This document shows, one piece after another, positions 12,508-25,451 of a stretch of DNA of 64,000 nt. A model generated the notes under the pieces. It did no database searches, had not been told where the DNA came from, and saw only the letters and a program-made list of their open reading frames with translations. Numbering within the stretch: the stretch's first letter is position 1; each line of letters begins with the position of its first letter. The DNA comes from Nannocystales bacterium. Its GTDB lineage: Bacteria; Myxococcota_A; Polyangia; Nannocystales; Nannocystaceae. The position numbers were made by a program, and so were the translations under genes. The stretch lies in contig JBOEGF010000024.1 of the NCBI GenBank assembly GCA_050633305.1, positions 96,001 through 160,000 of the forward strand. The letters run 5' to 3'.

Positions 12508-13836
12508 TCACGGGGTTGGCTCGAACACGCTCGTCCCAGGACCCATGCGTTGCTGCAGACGGGAGACTCGGGGCTCGTCCACGTGCACGGGGCCTTCTGC
12601 CTCGCGTCGGCCCGTATCGACCCACTCGCGCACGATGCGGTACAGGCCGTGGTCGAACGGGATGCCCGGTGCGGCCGCGACGGGCTCGATGCGTTCCCGT
12701 TGCCCTTGTCGCTCCATTTCGAGCGCTCGATGGTGGCAAAACGGGTTGTTTCCAGGGCGGCCCATCAAGGGCTCGGATGTCGCGGTGCACCCGCCTCGGC
12801 ACGTGTCGGCGTAGTAACACTGGGCACAGTAGCCCCACAGTTCGGCCGTGCTTCGCTCGCGGATGTACGCCAGCTCGGCGGAGCGAGCCCACAGCTCGCG
12901 GAGGGAGTGTTCGCGGATGTTGCCTCCGACATTCTCGGGCCCTCCGAGGCTGGGGCAGCCCTTGATGTCGCCGTGCGACTCGATCCCGATCTGTGCGCGC
13001 CCCGCTGCGCACCCTTTGTAGTGACGCTTCTGCAGCGAGCGGAGTTCGGCTTCGAGGGGCCCGAAGTACCCGAGGTTGTTGCCTGGCCAGATCTTGATGC
13101 CGCGCTCTCGGGCCCGCGCGAGGAGCGGTCGCAACACCTCGAATACCTCCAGCATCATGTACGGCTGCAGCAGAATCTCGGGGTGGTCGGCCGCGTTGCC
13201 GAACGGCGATGTGATCTGTAGTTGCCATCCGAAGGCCCCCGCGTCGCCGATGCGCTCGAGGAGCGTCGGGAGGTCGTACAGCGTGCGTCGGTTGATCTGC
13301 GTGTTCACGCCCACCGGAATCCCGGCCGCGCGTAGACGCCCGATGGCCTCGAACGCCTTGTCGTGGCTGCCCGGGATGCCCCTCAATTCATCATGGGCCT
13401 CGGCCAACCCGTCGACCGAGATCGACACGGTGCGAATCCCGGCCTCACGAAGCGCCCCGACTCGCGCTTGCGTCAGGTTGAGGCCGCCGGTCGTCATCGT
13501 GACGGACATGCCACGCGCACGGATCTCGTTGACGATCAGGACGAAGTCGTTGCGCAGATAGGCTTCGCCACCGACCAGGGTGACCTCGCCGACGCCCATG
13601 TCCGCGAGCTGCCCCACGAGGTCCAGGCACTCGTCCGTCGTCAGCTCGTCCTTTCTCGCCTTTCCGGCTCGAGACCCGCAGTGGATGCAGCGCTGGTCGC
13701 AAGCCAACGTAATCTCCCAGACGGCGTAGCGCGGGGTCGGGACTTCGCCCGCAGGCGTGTCTCGCAGCCGCCGTTGGTCGGGCGTTGGCAGATCTTGAAG
13801 CACCCGTAGGCGCCGTCTGGCGTCCTCGAGGCGCAC
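12508..13836 (-). CDS. Radical SAM/SPASM maturase, PlpX (splicease)-like, copy 1
   Basis: AVWEITLACDQRCIHCGSRAG (CX3CX2C), GGEAYLR, MTTGG, VNTQIN, WQLQIT, PGNNLGYFGP; SPASM CAAG...IKGCPSL...CAQCYYADTCRGGC...NNPFCHHRAL; GTG start 1 nt after the upstream stop. Confidence 0.9.
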   Translation of the reverse strand: MRLEDARRRLRVLQDLPTPDQRRLRDTPAGEVPTPRYAVWEITLACDQRCIHCGSRAGKARKDELTTDECLDLVGQLADMGVGEVTLVGGEAYLRNDFVLIVNEIRARGMSVTMTTGGLNLTQARVGALREAGIRTVSISVDGLAEAHDELRGIPGSHDKAFEAIGRLRAAGIPVGVNTQINRRTLYDLPTLLERIGDAGAFGWQLQITSPFGNAADHPEILLQPYMMLEVFEVLRPLLARARERGIKIWPGNNLGYFGPLEAELRSLQKRHYKGCAAGRAQIGIESHGDIKGCPSLGGPENVGGNIREHSLRELWARSAELAYIRERSTAELWGYCAQCYYADTCRGGCTATSEPLMGRPGNNPFCHHRALEMERQGQRERIEPVAAAPGIPFDHGLYRIVREWVDTGRREAEGPVHVDEPRVSRLQQRMGPGTSVFEPTP

Positions 13837-13837
13837 G

Positions 13838-14665
13838 TCAGGCCGGGGTGCAGACGTCGGAATCCAGGGCCTTGTCGGCGACGGGCTCGCACGCCTCGTC
13901 CTTCGCACAACTGGCGACCTCGGGGTCGCAGGTTTCGAAGCACAGGGGGAGCGCGCCCTCGAACTGCACCACACATGTCCCTTCGAGGCATACCGGGGCG
14001 TCCTCCGAGTTGCTGCACATCTCGACGCAGACGCCCTCCGTGGTCTTGGCATCCACGTAGAAACACATGGCTCCGAGCACACAGGTATCGATACCTGTCG
14101 TGCCGCTTCCTTCGACGGTGCATGGCTCGCCCGGGCCGACTGGAGCTGGGTCGATCGGCGTACATCGGCTGGCGTTCCAGACCTCCCCGCCGTCGTTCGC
14201 CCAGGGCATGCATTTCTCTCCCTTGGCGCAGTCCTGCATGAACACGTCGCACTCGTAGGAGAGGTCTCCAACATCTGTCGGACACCCGCCGTAAAAGCCT
14301 CCGCAAGAGTCGAAGGTGTCGTCGTCGAGCGTGGTGCTGTCGCCGCCGGTCGTCGTGTCCCCGATGTCCGTTCCGCCCGACGTGGTCGCAGCTGGATCGG
14401 TCGTGGTCGTCCCCGGCGGGGGGAGTGTCGTCGCGACGCTGGGATCGCCGGAGCTCGAGCTGGTCGAGCTCGGTGAAGACTCATCGGTCGTATCTCCCGC
14501 GTCCGACACCGCCGGTCCACATGCGCTGAGAACGGCACCGACCGCGATGACCATGACGGCGACCGGAATCCGCTGGGGAGGCGTCGAGCGAAGCGGCGAC
14601 GAGCAAAACGGACAAGCCGGTTCCGCGTCGAGAACATGACGTGTGCAAGACGGGCAGGGCAGCAT
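13838..14665 (-). CDS. Putative rSAM substrate: Zn-ribbon leader + lipoprotein signal + Ser/Thr stalk + CGGFYGGC core + Cys-rich repeat domain
   Basis: MLPCPSCTRHVLDAEPACPFC, hydrophobic stretch ending LSAC, low-complexity T/S/G/D region, FYG at 14288-14296, C-terminal ECDVFMQDCAKGEKCMPWAND... domain. Confidence 0.8.
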   Translation of the reverse strand: MLPCPSCTRHVLDAEPACPFCSSPLRSTPPQRIPVAVMVIAVGAVLSACGPAVSDAGDTTDESSPSSTSSSSGDPSVATTLPPPGTTTTDPAATTSGGTDIGDTTTGGDSTTLDDDTFDSCGGFYGGCPTDVGDLSYECDVFMQDCAKGEKCMPWANDGGEVWNASRCTPIDPAPVGPGEPCTVEGSGTTGIDTCVLGAMCFYVDAKTTEGVCVEMCSNSEDAPVCLEGTCVVQFEGALPLCFETCDPEVASCAKDEACEPVADKALDSDVCTPA

Positions 14666-23693: not shown

Positions 23694-25011
23694 CGATCGT
23701 TCGTCCGGGCCCGGTCCACTCGATCGTTCGGTCCACCCGGGGTTCTTCGATCGCCACGGGACCCTCGGATTCGCGCCGTGCTTCGTCGACCCACTCTCGA
23801 ACGATCCTGAACAGCGCGAACGCAAAGCCGTCGTCCGCCGCGGGCTTCACAAGCTCAATGCGCTCCCGCATGCCCTCCTTCTCCATCTGGAGCGCTCGGT
23901 AGTGGCAGAAGGGATTGTTGCCCGGCCGCCCCATCAGTGGCTCAGAGACTGCCGTACATCCTCCCTTGCAGACGTCCGCGTAGTAGCACTGCGCGCAATA
24001 ACCCCACAGATCCGTTCGGGTCCGGTTGCGCAGCGAATCGATCTGCGGCTTTGTCCACAGGGCCGCGAGACCCTCCTCCCGCCACGAACCACCGACGTTC
24101 GTCGGGCCACCCAATGAAGGGCAGTTCTTGATCGCGCCGTTGCTCTCGATGCCGATCGTCGACTTGCCAGCCTCGCACCCACCGAAGTGTCCCGTTCGCA
24201 TGCGCTGCTTCGCGCGCAGTTTTCGCTCGACGGGGCCGAAGTAGCCCAGAGAGTTCGCCGGCCAGATCCGAACCCCGAGTTCCTCTGCGCGGTCGCAGAC
24301 GGCGTCGAGGGCTTCAAAGACTTCGAGCAGCATGTACGGCTCCATGACCAGCTCGAGGTTGTCGGCCGCGTTTCCGTGCGGCACGGTGATTTGCAGCTGC
24401 CACGAGTGGACTCCTTCGGCCGCGATCAGCTCGAGCAAGTCCAGCAGTTCGAACCGGGTGTACGCATTGATCTGGGTGTTGACCGCCACGCCACATCCCG
24501 CACCTCGCAAATACCGGAGAGCCCGGAACGCATGCTCCCAGCTGTCCTTGGTGTTCCGGACGAGGTCGTGGCTCTCTTGCATGCCGTCGATCGACAAACT
24601 CACACTCTCGATGCCCGCCTCCACGAGGGCTTCGGCGCGATCCTTCGTCAGGCCATATCCACCCGTCGTCATCGTCGCGGACATGCCGAGTTCCCGAATC
24701 CTGCGTACGATCAGGATGAAGTCGTTGCGCAGGTACGCCTCGCCTCCGATGAGGACCACCTCGCCGACCCCCATCTCGGCCAGCTCTTCGGTCAGCTGTA
24801 GTGCCTCGGCGGTCGTCAGCTCGTCCGGACGCGCGTCCGCAGCCCGAGGGCCGCAGTGTAGACAGCGCTGGTCACATGCGAGCGTCAGCTCCCAGACCGC
24901 CAGACGCGGAACTGGAACCTGGCCCGGCAACGTGGCCTCGAAGCCTCGGCCGCGCGCGACCGGTAGCGAGTCGACGATCGGAAGGTGATGCTTGGCCTCC
25001 CGGAGTCTCAT
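23680..25011 (-). CDS. Radical SAM/SPASM maturase, PlpX (splicease)-like, copy 2
   Basis: AVWELTLACDQRCLHCGPRA, GGEAYLR, MTTGGYG, NTQIN, WQLQIT, ANSLGYFGP; SPASM CEAG...IKNCPSL...CAQCYYADVCKGGC...NNPFC; SD ggagg and ATGA overlap with the upstream gene. Confidence 0.9.
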   Translation of the reverse strand: MRLREAKHHLPIVDSLPVARGRGFEATLPGQVPVPRLAVWELTLACDQRCLHCGPRAADARPDELTTAEALQLTEELAEMGVGEVVLIGGEAYLRNDFILIVRRIRELGMSATMTTGGYGLTKDRAEALVEAGIESVSLSIDGMQESHDLVRNTKDSWEHAFRALRYLRGAGCGVAVNTQINAYTRFELLDLLELIAAEGVHSWQLQITVPHGNAADNLELVMEPYMLLEVFEALDAVCDRAEELGVRIWPANSLGYFGPVERKLRAKQRMRTGHFGGCEAGKSTIGIESNGAIKNCPSLGGPTNVGGSWREEGLAALWTKPQIDSLRNRTRTDLWGYCAQCYYADVCKGGCTAVSEPLMGRPGNNPFCHYRALQMEKEGMRERIELVKPAADDGFAFALFRIVREWVDEARRESEGPVAIEEPRVDRTIEWTGPGRTIDELV

Positions 25012-25451
25012 GCCTCCTGGTCCGAGTCCGTGGGTTCTTCCCAAACCGACGATCCGGTCGAAGACGAGGAGGTGCCGGGGCCGGCGTAGTACGAGCCGCC
25101 GAAGTCCGTCGTGCTGCTGCTGGAGTCGCCGCCGGTGGTCGAGCTGGTCGAGCTGGTCGAAGCCGGCCCCGCGTAGTACGAGCCGCCAAAGTCCGTTGTG
25201 GAGCTTTCGTCGGCGGTCGTGCTGCTGCTCGTCGAGGCGTCGGTCGTCGACGAACTCGATGCTGACTGAGTGGTGGTCCCCGGTCCGGTCGATGCGCCCG
25301 TGTCCCCATCGCTGTCGCAGCCGACGAGACTGAGCCCCAAGGAGAGGCCGAGCACCGCGGCGGCTCTCGCAGTTCGCGAGGGTGCCTTGCAATGAGGGCA
25401 CACGGTCTCCGAGGCGACCACGAACTGATCACATGTCATGCAAAGTCTCAT
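25008..25451 (-). CDS. Putative rSAM substrate: Zn-ribbon leader + lipoprotein signal + Ser/Thr stalk with two identical Tyr cores
   Basis: MRLCMTCDQFVVASETVCPHC, LGLSLGLSLVGC, SSTTDFGGSYYAGP at 25164-25205 and 25077-25118. Confidence 0.82.
   Translation of the reverse strand: MRLCMTCDQFVVASETVCPHCKAPSRTARAAAVLGLSLGLSLVGCDSDGDTGASTGPGTTTQSASSSSTTDASTSSSTTADESSTTDFGGSYYAGPASTSSTSSTTGGDSSSSTTDFGGSYYAGPGTSSSSTGSSVWEEPTDSDQEA

Follow-up and report, generated by a model that had tools for sequence, protein, structure and literature searches.

Splicease-clade radical SAM enzymes and their zinc-ribbon-led, lipoprotein-like partners in a Nannocystales bacterium

Spliceases are radical S-adenosylmethionine (SAM)/SPASM enzymes for which XYG is given as the target sequence (PMC11626197, PMC11414181, PMC9811515; here and below, papers cited by number and the Scott 2022 survey are drawn on for the portions of them available to us). 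In this paper we compare with the described splicease systems two loci that lie in a 64,000-nt stretch of DNA from a Nannocystales bacterium (contig JBOEGF010000024.1; the whole stretch is called the window, and coordinates are window positions unless another locus is named). At locus 1 the enzyme gene R1 stands next to the gene A1, and at locus 2 the enzyme gene R2 stands next to A2, where A1 and A2 encode lipoprotein-like proteins that begin with a zinc ribbon. On balance, and by a modest measure, our analysis favors the reading of either locus as a splicease system of two components, with a pre-lipoprotein as its substrate.

The type I systems PlpX/PlpY/PlpA and PcpXYA (TIGR04103, IPR026482; PMC11414181, PMC11002830) resemble the two loci in having a radical SAM/SPASM enzyme, common motifs and x-Tyr-Gly-x-Pro-like sites in a co-encoded substrate, and the binary type II systems RhaX/RhaA, RcsX/RcsA and RasX/RasA (PMC11414181, PMC11626197) resemble them in having two components, an enzyme-binding element at the substrate N-terminus and cores that can hold Cys pairs. 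The figure list of the PMC11414181 supplement gives alignments with PlpY for types II, III and V and does not mention type IV. The GDL maturases (TIGR03913) with their DUF1843 peptides share the enzyme clade, a zinc ribbon and both YG and YA peptide forms, and the Bacteroidota families TIGR04133 (rSAM_w_lipo) and TIGR04134 (lipo_with_rSAM) likewise pair a radical SAM/SPASM gene with a putative lipoprotein. TIGR04134 lipoproteins carry a YG site and are treated as spliceotides.

The enzymes and their partner genes

R1 and R2 belong to the splicease clade, as a preliminary description of this DNA had proposed, and to no curated family. Both carry Radical_SAM (PF04055) and SPASM (PF13186) domains above the Pfam cut-offs. 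R1 scores 435.6 bits on TIGR03913, its best NCBIfam match, and 435.2 bits on TIGR04103, and R2 scores 381.1 bits on TIGR04103 and 372.8 bits on TIGR03913, all under the cut-offs of 591.75 bits (TIGR03913) and 725 bits (TIGR04103), so that both are members of neither family. For scale, a true member of TIGR04103 reaches 414.5 bits on the TIGR03913 model, and for a true member of TIGR03913 the TIGR04103 model gives 438.7 bits; R1 and R2 thus score about as true members of one family do on the other's model. Their TIGR03913 match stops near position 396 of the 477-position model, and they have no C-terminal ribbon tail. The eight splicease motifs listed earlier for the enzymes are all present in R1, and all eight of these occur in the PcpX and PlpX sequences of the PMC11414181 supplement (compared by eye); R2 deviates in four of them (AVWELTL, ANSLGYFGP, IKNCPSL, CHYRAL).

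R1 is 46% identical to a Nostoc TIGR04103 member. A 163-row FastTree places R1 and R2 together with the Nostoc enzyme and three of the GDL type in a group of 147 rows (support 96), and a 48-row IQ-TREE gives the same split with support 100; in both trees the Nostoc member (853 bits) represents PlpX, neither tree contains PlpX or true AhbD or NirJ rows, and a sister clade whose best matches are still splicease models (245–313 bits) serves as outgroup. Within the group, R1 and R2 lie in an 81-row sub-clade (support 99) with a longer C-terminus. The enzyme structure model (predicted local distance difference test, pLDDT, 93.7) has SkfB, PqqE and SuiB as its nearest solved folds, and structure searches found no solved splicease structure. 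A separate observation concerns the sister clade, loci L025–L030 and L081–L088 of other Polyangia: its enzymes are 36–42% identical to R1, score 245–313 bits and have no ribbon-led neighbor.

What would these enzymes act on? At both loci the candidate is the gene upstream. The stop of A1 lies 1 nt ahead of the R1 GTG, and A2 and R2 share an ATGA overlap with a GGAGG before the R2 ATG; since the enzymes are 57.9% identical and both open reading frames (ORFs) are intact, the earlier picture of two similar genes, each coupled to an upstream gene, stands. So does the common layout of the partners, namely CxxC-x10-CPxC at residues 4–21, a hydrophobic stretch, LSAC or LVGC, a Ser/Thr stalk, and GGFYGG or two copies of GGSYYAGP. 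The longest ORF at A1 begins at 14767; we place the start at 14665 because a Met just precedes the ribbon, at most 10 residues before it, in 125 of 136 relatives.

We inspected 170 loci around relatives of the enzymes, which after removal of duplicates gave 142 clade and 16 outgroup enzymes. A gene with ribbon and signal is present in the locus of 119 of the 142 clade enzymes (in one case at 9 kb distance), against 0 of the 16 outgroup enzymes. Of the 118 nearest partners, 45 are upstream on the same strand, 35 convergent, 29 downstream and 9 divergent. The preliminary description had counted an unconserved neighborhood as grounds for abandoning the idea; the partner is a conserved neighbor in four gene orders. 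It had also called for a search of myxobacterial genomes for genes with CxxC-x10-CPxC and a lipobox beside enzyme homologues, and this search reveals a Myxococcota-wide family of proteins, 120–350 residues long, with a zinc ribbon, a signal helix, an invariant Cys, a Ser/Thr stalk and x-Tyr-Gly-x-Pro sites. Cultured carriers of such loci include Plesiocystis pacifica (L126), Enhygromyxa salina (L133), Paraliomyxa miuraensis (L139/L141) and Nannocystis radixulma (L146). The partner profile was seeded from these neighbors, most of which a simple pattern had already found. Full ribbon-plus-signal matches occur in 14 of 14 genomes with a clade enzyme and in 0 of 16 without one, and weak ribbon-only matches occur in three of the latter; this sample comprises 30 of 40 genomes (all 16 enzyme-less ones and 14 of the 23 others), for each of which 150 candidates were scored, and related genomes in it are not independent. 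The source genome, which named relatives place with Nannocystaceae-type myxobacteria, has 5 clade enzymes and 22 ribbon-led genes, of which 5 adjoin an enzyme, 5 stand in an array 9–12 kb from one, and 12 are remote. Judged from sequence, the five enzymes would, with fair though not strong probability, serve the 12 remote substrate genes in trans as well.

Individual loci show some further arrangements. The array (G000:C14:153513-155950) consists of five ribbon-led substrate genes, two of them overlapping in different frames, and homologues of its genes are directly convergent with an enzyme at L069–L071 and L074. At G000:C23:241644-243937 an enzyme and a ribbon-led substrate gene form a divergent pair with a few tens of bases between them, and at G000:C16:57035-57500 the ribbon, the signal and an ATYGGP site lie in different frames, pointing to a frameshifted or mis-assembled substrate gene. 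One group of Nannocystis loci (L155, L156, L157, L160, L162) has no ribbon-led neighbor within 4 kb, and its sister L151 has one (FIYAAP). We rejected L170 as a natural substrate–enzyme fusion: its substrate gene is frameshifted, and the duplicate locus L172 has separate genes.

Candidate target site, lipoprotein-type signal and zinc ribbon

We found 143 non-redundant substrates, of which 3 are incomplete and 4 lack a signal Cys, leaving 136 evaluable. After the 289 stalk Tyr of these 136, the next residue is Gly in 216 cases (background 17%), Ala in 27 and Ser in 9, and Pro stands at +3 in 163 of 252 sites. Counted by substrate, 116 have YG, 17 have YA or YS only and 3 have none; the corresponding numbers are 63, 13 and 7 for 83 full-length matches picked regardless of neighbors from a library of 1.84 billion proteins, in partial overlap with the profile seeds. 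Moreover, Y[GA]x[PA] is found in 17 of the 22 ribbon-led proteins of the source genome but in only 3 of 183 other lipoprotein-like ORFs with Ser/Thr stalks, and the Tyr layout of the partners is therefore beyond chance. The Tyr-Gly sites are under strong selection, and the site of the Nostoc type I precursor, LYGLP, has the same form.

The Cys-rich domain of A1, which has no Pfam or NCBIfam family match, has 37 homologues in the genome, 2 of them with a ribbon; both of these stand beside an enzyme and have YG just ahead of the domain. In the 35 ribbon-less homologues the site position is taken by Phe and an aliphatic residue in 20 cases and by a form of Y[GA] in 5. Thus ordinary lipoproteins appear to have been recruited by joint gain of ribbon and site. 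In another set of substrates (L019, L020, L022, L053, L062, L064, L067, L073) Tyr-Gly comes right after the lipobox Cys, so that a spliced, lipid-bearing Cys would be a keto-beta residue.

The X-Tyr-Gly target proposed earlier for both partners holds for A1 (Phe124-Tyr125-Gly126) and not for A2, where Tyr-Ala stands instead. By the Y-x-x-P register, the second Tyr of the YY in SYYAGP is the predicted target. R2 belongs to a 9-row group (support 99) whose substrates carry YA or YS, one of them also YG, and the Tyr-Ala of A2 is thus inherited rather than an error. An Atlas search with A2 (best match 0.85) gave no usable lead, and a look-up for locus 1 listed no RNA holder.

A lipoprotein-type signal, also part of the preliminary description, is seen across the family. 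A Cys follows the hydrophobic stretch in 136 of 140 partners, and around it (n = 136) Leu is found at -3 in 86, Ala, Gly or Ser at -1 in 128, and a basic residue in the ribbon–helix linker in 127. LSAC and LVGC both fit an [LVI][ASTVIG][GAS]C box with a basic N-region and a hydrophobic helix, and the source genome has 4 Lgt and 3 LspA genes above cut-off. We rejected a translation start after the ribbon, as in the Atlas entry that begins A2 at residue 33, since the basic N-region would then be lost and only 14 of 136 relatives offer a Met at such a place, between ribbon and helix. Twin-arginine (Tat) export was rejected as well, with an RR-type motif in only 2 of 136. From the form of these signals we regard lipidation and export of the partners as highly probable. 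Iron-sulfur, SAM-dependent enzymes act in the cytoplasm, and any modification must therefore precede export.

Why would a pre-lipoprotein begin with a zinc ribbon? The best NCBIfam match of the A2 ribbon is positions 429–458 of the 477-position TIGR03913 model, that is, the enzyme tail (E = 1.6e-4), which is also matched by the ribbons of 40 of 130 family members. The C-terminal tail is a CxxC-x10-CPxC ribbon in 13 of the 14 GDL-type enzymes that we examined, and WP_282302620.1, a clade enzyme from a Tropicibacter oceani plasmid, begins with such a ribbon. (The gene of this enzyme, L196:2683-4305, shares an operon with a further radical SAM gene and with genes for a phosphotransferase, an M23 peptidase and a trypsin-like protein, and we saw no evident substrate there.) When a profile of GDL tails only is run against the 144,993 ORFs of the source genome, which include 221 with some CxxC-CxxC pattern, the top 14 are all substrate genes, A2 being second; the A1 ribbon reaches only 10.7 bits, within noise, and generic multi-ribbon proteins reach up to 29.5 bits with the same profile. 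Since generic ribbons score as high as GDL tails, the weight of the argument rests on where the fusions occur and not on the score. A ribbon-profile search among longer proteins, a weak test, gave 17 matches, none with a listed radical SAM domain.

A complex model of R2 with A2 residues 1–52 scores 0.85, and the best of 3 controls scores 0.00. Of 157 solved pairs 116 reach the mark, as do 2 of 215 mismatched ones; the calibration is only rough here, custom alignments and riding ligands having been used. Contact agreement between runs is at least 77%, and the partner pLDDT is at least 68. The modeled contacts join ribbon residues 1, 3, 7-10 and 19 to R2 residues 258-263, 273-275, 343-344, 347 and 371, and the signal helix makes no confident contacts. 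G256, Y257, G259 and P260 are almost invariant, being found in 145 or more of the 147 clade enzymes. The PlpY helix occurs as a separate protein, in the substrate leader, or fused to the enzyme C-terminus (PMC11414181), and the mobile ribbon parallels it in this. On the strength of the fusions and the model, the ribbon is likely a mobile docking module for the enzyme.

Table 1. Features of the two loci in the window; the genes of both loci are all on the minus strand.
Feature	Position	Strand	Basis
R1, splicease-clade radical SAM/SPASM enzyme, 442 aa, GTG start	12508..13836	-	intact ORF, TIGR/Pfam scores
A1, ribbon-led lipoprotein-like candidate substrate, 275 aa, C-terminal Cys-rich domain	13838..14665	-	orthologues beside R1 orthologues, loci L002-L006
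A1 zinc ribbon CxxC-x10-CPxC, residues 4-21	14603..14656	-	four Cys invariant, 130 aligned relatives
A1 lipobox LSAC, residues 46-49 (Cys49)	14519..14530	-	sequence
A1 candidate target GGFYGG (Phe124-Tyr125-Gly126), one Cys on each side	14285..14302	-	C-x-x(-x)-FYGG-C kept, L002-L006
A1 Cys-rich domain, from residue 137	13841..14257	-	in 36 further proteins of same genome, 35 ribbon-less
PMT-like (GT39/GT-C) membrane glycosyltransferase (predicted), 662 aa, third gene of locus 2	21705..23693	-	PF13231, Atlas, linkage
R2, splicease-clade radical SAM/SPASM enzyme, 443 aa, Tyr-Ala sub-clade	23680..25011	-	TIGR scores, trees
A2, ribbon-led lipoprotein-like candidate substrate, 147 aa, disordered Ser/Thr stalk	25008..25451	-	orthologues in L032, L040
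A2 zinc ribbon, residues 4-21, predicted R2 docking module	25389..25442	-	homology to GDL-type enzyme C-terminal tail
A2 lipobox LVGC, residues 42-45 (Cys45)	25317..25328	-	sequence
A2 candidate target site 1, GGSYYAGP (Tyr93-Ala94)	25164..25187	-	sequence
A2 candidate target site 2, GGSYYAGP (Tyr122-Ala123)	25077..25100	-	sequence

Within 12508..25451 the preliminary gene list was incomplete, as it omitted the third conserved gene of locus 2, which starts 14 nt inside the R2 end. Its product is predicted to be a polytopic member of the GT39/PMT-like GT-C family, with 27.3 bits on PF13231 (PMT_2; cut-off 26.1), a 0.97 match to an Atlas GT39 cluster, and about 8 hydrophobic segments. Close orthologues (E < 1e-120) are present in 5 of 72 genomes of the family (G000, G003 with one in-frame TGA, G004, G057 and G062), and each of the five has a SYYAGP site within about 1.5–2 kb; taken by itself, the SYYAGP DNA pattern occurs about as often as expected by chance, 3 of 8 genomes giving unrelated proteins, and only its position beside the loci was used. 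In G000, G003 and G004 the three genes run in one direction, first the substrate, then the enzyme, then the transferase; at L146 and L149 the transferase lies upstream in divergent orientation and the substrate downstream in convergent orientation. No other locus in the set holds a transferase homologue at E 1e-8. Because linkage is kept through rearrangement, it suggests that the transferase shares a pathway with the enzyme–substrate pair, in a sample of five related loci from two genera. That the transferase glycosylates the exported protein is conceivable from its family, at a little less than an even chance.

The immediate neighbors of R1 and R2 are A1, a DEAD-box helicase, A2 and the PMT-like gene. 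Loci 1 and 2 are separated by 9 kb with mostly unrelated genes between them and do not form one cluster. Between the loci lies a 359-aa ORF (20361-21440, plus strand) without a Pfam or NCBIfam match, which by eye resembles a REP-associated (HUH) tyrosine transposase. Divergent from A2, at 25438-28633 on the plus strand, are genes for an extracytoplasmic function (ECF) sigma factor and a Ser/Thr kinase-TPR protein; the first ATG of the sigma factor gene overlaps the A2 start, and homologues of it are also present in loci L036, L126, L147, L150 and L163.

A possible pathway and its rivals

How could such a system work? In the pathway that we propose, the substrate ribbon would first dock on the enzyme in the cytoplasm, beside the GYFGP motif and the SPASM domain, as modeled and as the fusions would lead one to expect, and would take the role that PlpY or the RhaA leader helix has in the characterized systems. 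By homology, the enzyme would then excise tyramine at x-Tyr-Gly(-x-Pro) in the unfolded stalk, leaving a backbone alpha-keto-beta-amide: in A1 a keto-beta-Phe, probably within a small disulfide loop, and in A2 a keto-beta-Tyr, if R2 accepts Tyr-Ala. Analogy with known spliceases makes this excision probable for A1 and no better than evenly balanced for A2. The helix after the ribbon would serve as a signal peptide with a long N-region, and after Sec export Lgt would lipidate the Cys and LspA would remove ribbon and signal together, so that a housekeeping route would replace the exporter and protease usual for peptides that are made by ribosomes and modified after translation (RiPPs). At locus 2 only, the PMT-like enzyme may then glycosylate the exported protein, most simply on its Ser/Thr stalk. 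The end product would be a membrane-tethered stalk bearing keto-amides. The earlier remark that no RiPP recognition element, protease or exporter is visible can in this way be recast, with the ribbon as the recognition module and housekeeping Sec/Lgt/Lsp as exporter and leader peptidase.

Along with the subthreshold family scores, the weak ribbon profile scores and the roughly calibrated complex model, several observations weigh against the two-component splicease reading. No ribbon-led neighbor was found beside 23 of the 142 clade enzymes within the 1.5–4 kb inspected. In A2 all four Tyr lie in SYYAGP and none is followed by Gly, so that locus 2 departs from the published XYG target; moreover, a DYG site is left unmodified by RcsX (PMC11626197), and Asp is the commonest residue before the target Tyr in our family (51 of 252). 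A strict lipobox is found in only 71 of 136 partners, and the signal Cys comes late (median residue 49, range 41–69; 49 in A1 and 45 in A2). In the usual lipoprotein signal the Cys lies within about 35 residues, a rule to which A1 and A2 do not conform. At L043/L207 a SYYAGP substrate has no transferase within 19 kb or genome-wide at E 1e-40. Finally, in a mutual-information scan of 117 pairs, ribbon residue 10 with enzyme residue 261 ranked first and ribbon 9 with enzyme 371 third, and on independent pairs after kinship correction the p values were 0.25 and 1; we have dropped covariation as evidence.

A broader form of the proposal, which we advance as tentative and rather doubtful, is that of a dedicated protein-modification system and not a peptide-antibiotic pathway: the ribbon tag would send some 20 envelope proteins of a genome to the spliceases ahead of export and would then be discarded with the signal, leaving a cell surface coated with beta-keto-amide backbones. 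Held with the same reserve, the ribbon, which would act in cis on GDL-type enzymes, could give spliceases an activator fold additional to the PlpY helix, and locus 2, with Tyr-Ala chemistry and a dedicated glycosyltransferase, could yield a lipidated, glycosylated and backbone-spliced protein. As to the role of such products, we can only speculate that they trap envelope serine or cysteine proteases, an idea that comes from the inhibitory RcsA and RasA spliceotide products (PMC11626197).

The lipoprotein might instead be only a carrier, its stalk being cut by extracellular proteases to free short keto-amide peptides, that is, a diffusible spliceotide. Characterized spliceotides are active as short peptides (PMC11626197), and the featureless stalk of many substrates holds two to five copies of the site, much as in multi-core precursors. 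However, no protease or transporter recurs as a neighbor in the inspected loci, and a site just ahead of a folded Cys-rich domain (14 of 136 substrates), or a YG directly after the signal Cys predicted to carry the lipid (13 of 136), suits a tethered product; we regard a mere carrier as unlikely.

It is likewise improbable, in our estimate, that the enzymes perform other Tyr chemistry such as cross-linking or side-chain cleavage, above all in the Tyr-Ala/Tyr-Ser sub-clade of R2, or that the Tyr-Ala proteins are left unmodified. The absence of Gly in A2 would fit such chemistry, as would the departure of R2 from the PFDHG loop in addition to the four motifs, and at 8 columns that are otherwise conserved the 81-enzyme Nannocystaceae clade stands apart from other spliceases. 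Against this, Tyr-Ala or Tyr-Ser arose in at least 7 independent pairs among Tyr-Gly neighbors, both forms occur within one substrate at L089, and precursors of the DUF1843/GDL type switch between YG and YA among paralogues (L195). No enzyme residue among positions 254, 399, 296 and 55 tracks Tyr-Ala after tree correction, and the pattern looks like a relaxed rule for a small residue.

A quite improbable third alternative is that the partners are not lipidated at all, the helix being an uncleaved anchor or a type I signal and the ribbon a permanent cytoplasmic tether for the enzyme. An N-region of about 35 residues that contains a folded metal-binding module would agree with it, as would the 65 of 136 partners that miss the strict lipobox; but the Cys is invariant in the alignment (whose rows were chosen for it, 136 of 140 evaluable) and has lipobox-like neighbors, and the 35 ribbon-less Cys-rich paralogues mostly have ordinary short lipoprotein signals with the same box type. 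Finally, a role of these radical SAM proteins in heme or cofactor biosynthesis, with incidental neighbors, as the source name 'heme biosynthesis protein' of two relatives (P0068, P0118) would have it and as the preliminary description had allowed for, can be dismissed, since the AhbD, AhbC and NirJ models (TIGR04545, TIGR04546, TIGR04051, TIGR04055) give 103–154.6 bits against cut-offs of 500–650 and against 373–436 for the splicease-type models, and since the neighbor is kept in four gene orders and co-occurs by genome.

Comparison with described systems

The Scott 2022 survey of spliceases, in which the types were defined, covers 27 pairs, 189 genera and 939 predicted systems. Enzymes of the R1/R2 type are very likely inside its network, and the class may be listed there already. 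In the available portions of PMC11626197, PMC9811515, PMC10849128, PMC11002830, PMC10533398, PMC10885120, PMC8868522, PMC10125368 and PMC8326336, a search that did not extend to the Scott 2022 survey, no myxobacterial, ribbon-led or lipoprotein splicease substrates are described, and a literature search pairing splicease with lipoprotein, likewise without that survey, found no paper; among the papers listed for the TIGR and InterPro families, none has this class as its subject by title.

According to PMC9811515 and PMC8868522, it is not known which spliceotides are made natively and what biological role they have. If the products of the R1/R2 type stay lipid-anchored in cultured myxobacteria, they could be found by membrane proteomics, and the question of a native role would become testable; the cell may, if our reading is true, display rare keto-amide groups on its surface. 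Leader-independent splicing tools would gain a new recognition module in a ribbon that moves between the N-terminus of the substrate and either end of the enzyme, and an enzyme that accepts Tyr-Ala, if confirmed, would broaden the tags for placing beta-amino acids in proteins.

Unlike the type I systems, the R1 and R2 loci have no PlpY gene, no Nif11 leader and no double-Gly cleavage site (locus L193 provides the contrast), and their candidate substrates are pre-lipoproteins of 120–350 residues with a zinc ribbon, A2 moreover having Tyr-Ala. In the GDL systems the ribbon is the C-terminal tail of the enzyme and the substrates are helical peptides of 55–70 residues without a signal, whereas here the ribbon is on the substrate, and no DUF1843/GDL peptide was detected by Pfam beside R1 or R2 among the 26 window ORFs scanned (at least 80 aa). 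On TIGR04133, R1 and R2 score 158 and 139 bits against a cut-off of 425, and A1 and A2 have no TIGR04134 match (cut-off 39.8). The binary systems carry a PlpY-like helix in a double-Gly leader, where the partners described here carry a CxxC-CPxC ribbon and a lipoprotein-type signal. What we consider new is the ribbon as a likely mobile docking module, the Tyr-Ala candidate substrate as a conserved sub-clade trait, and the putative glycosyltransferase as third gene of locus 2. By their scores, the enzymes of these pairs are members of none of TIGR04103, TIGR03913 and TIGR04133, and the enzyme–lipoprotein pairs would work in the manner of a binary splicease system.

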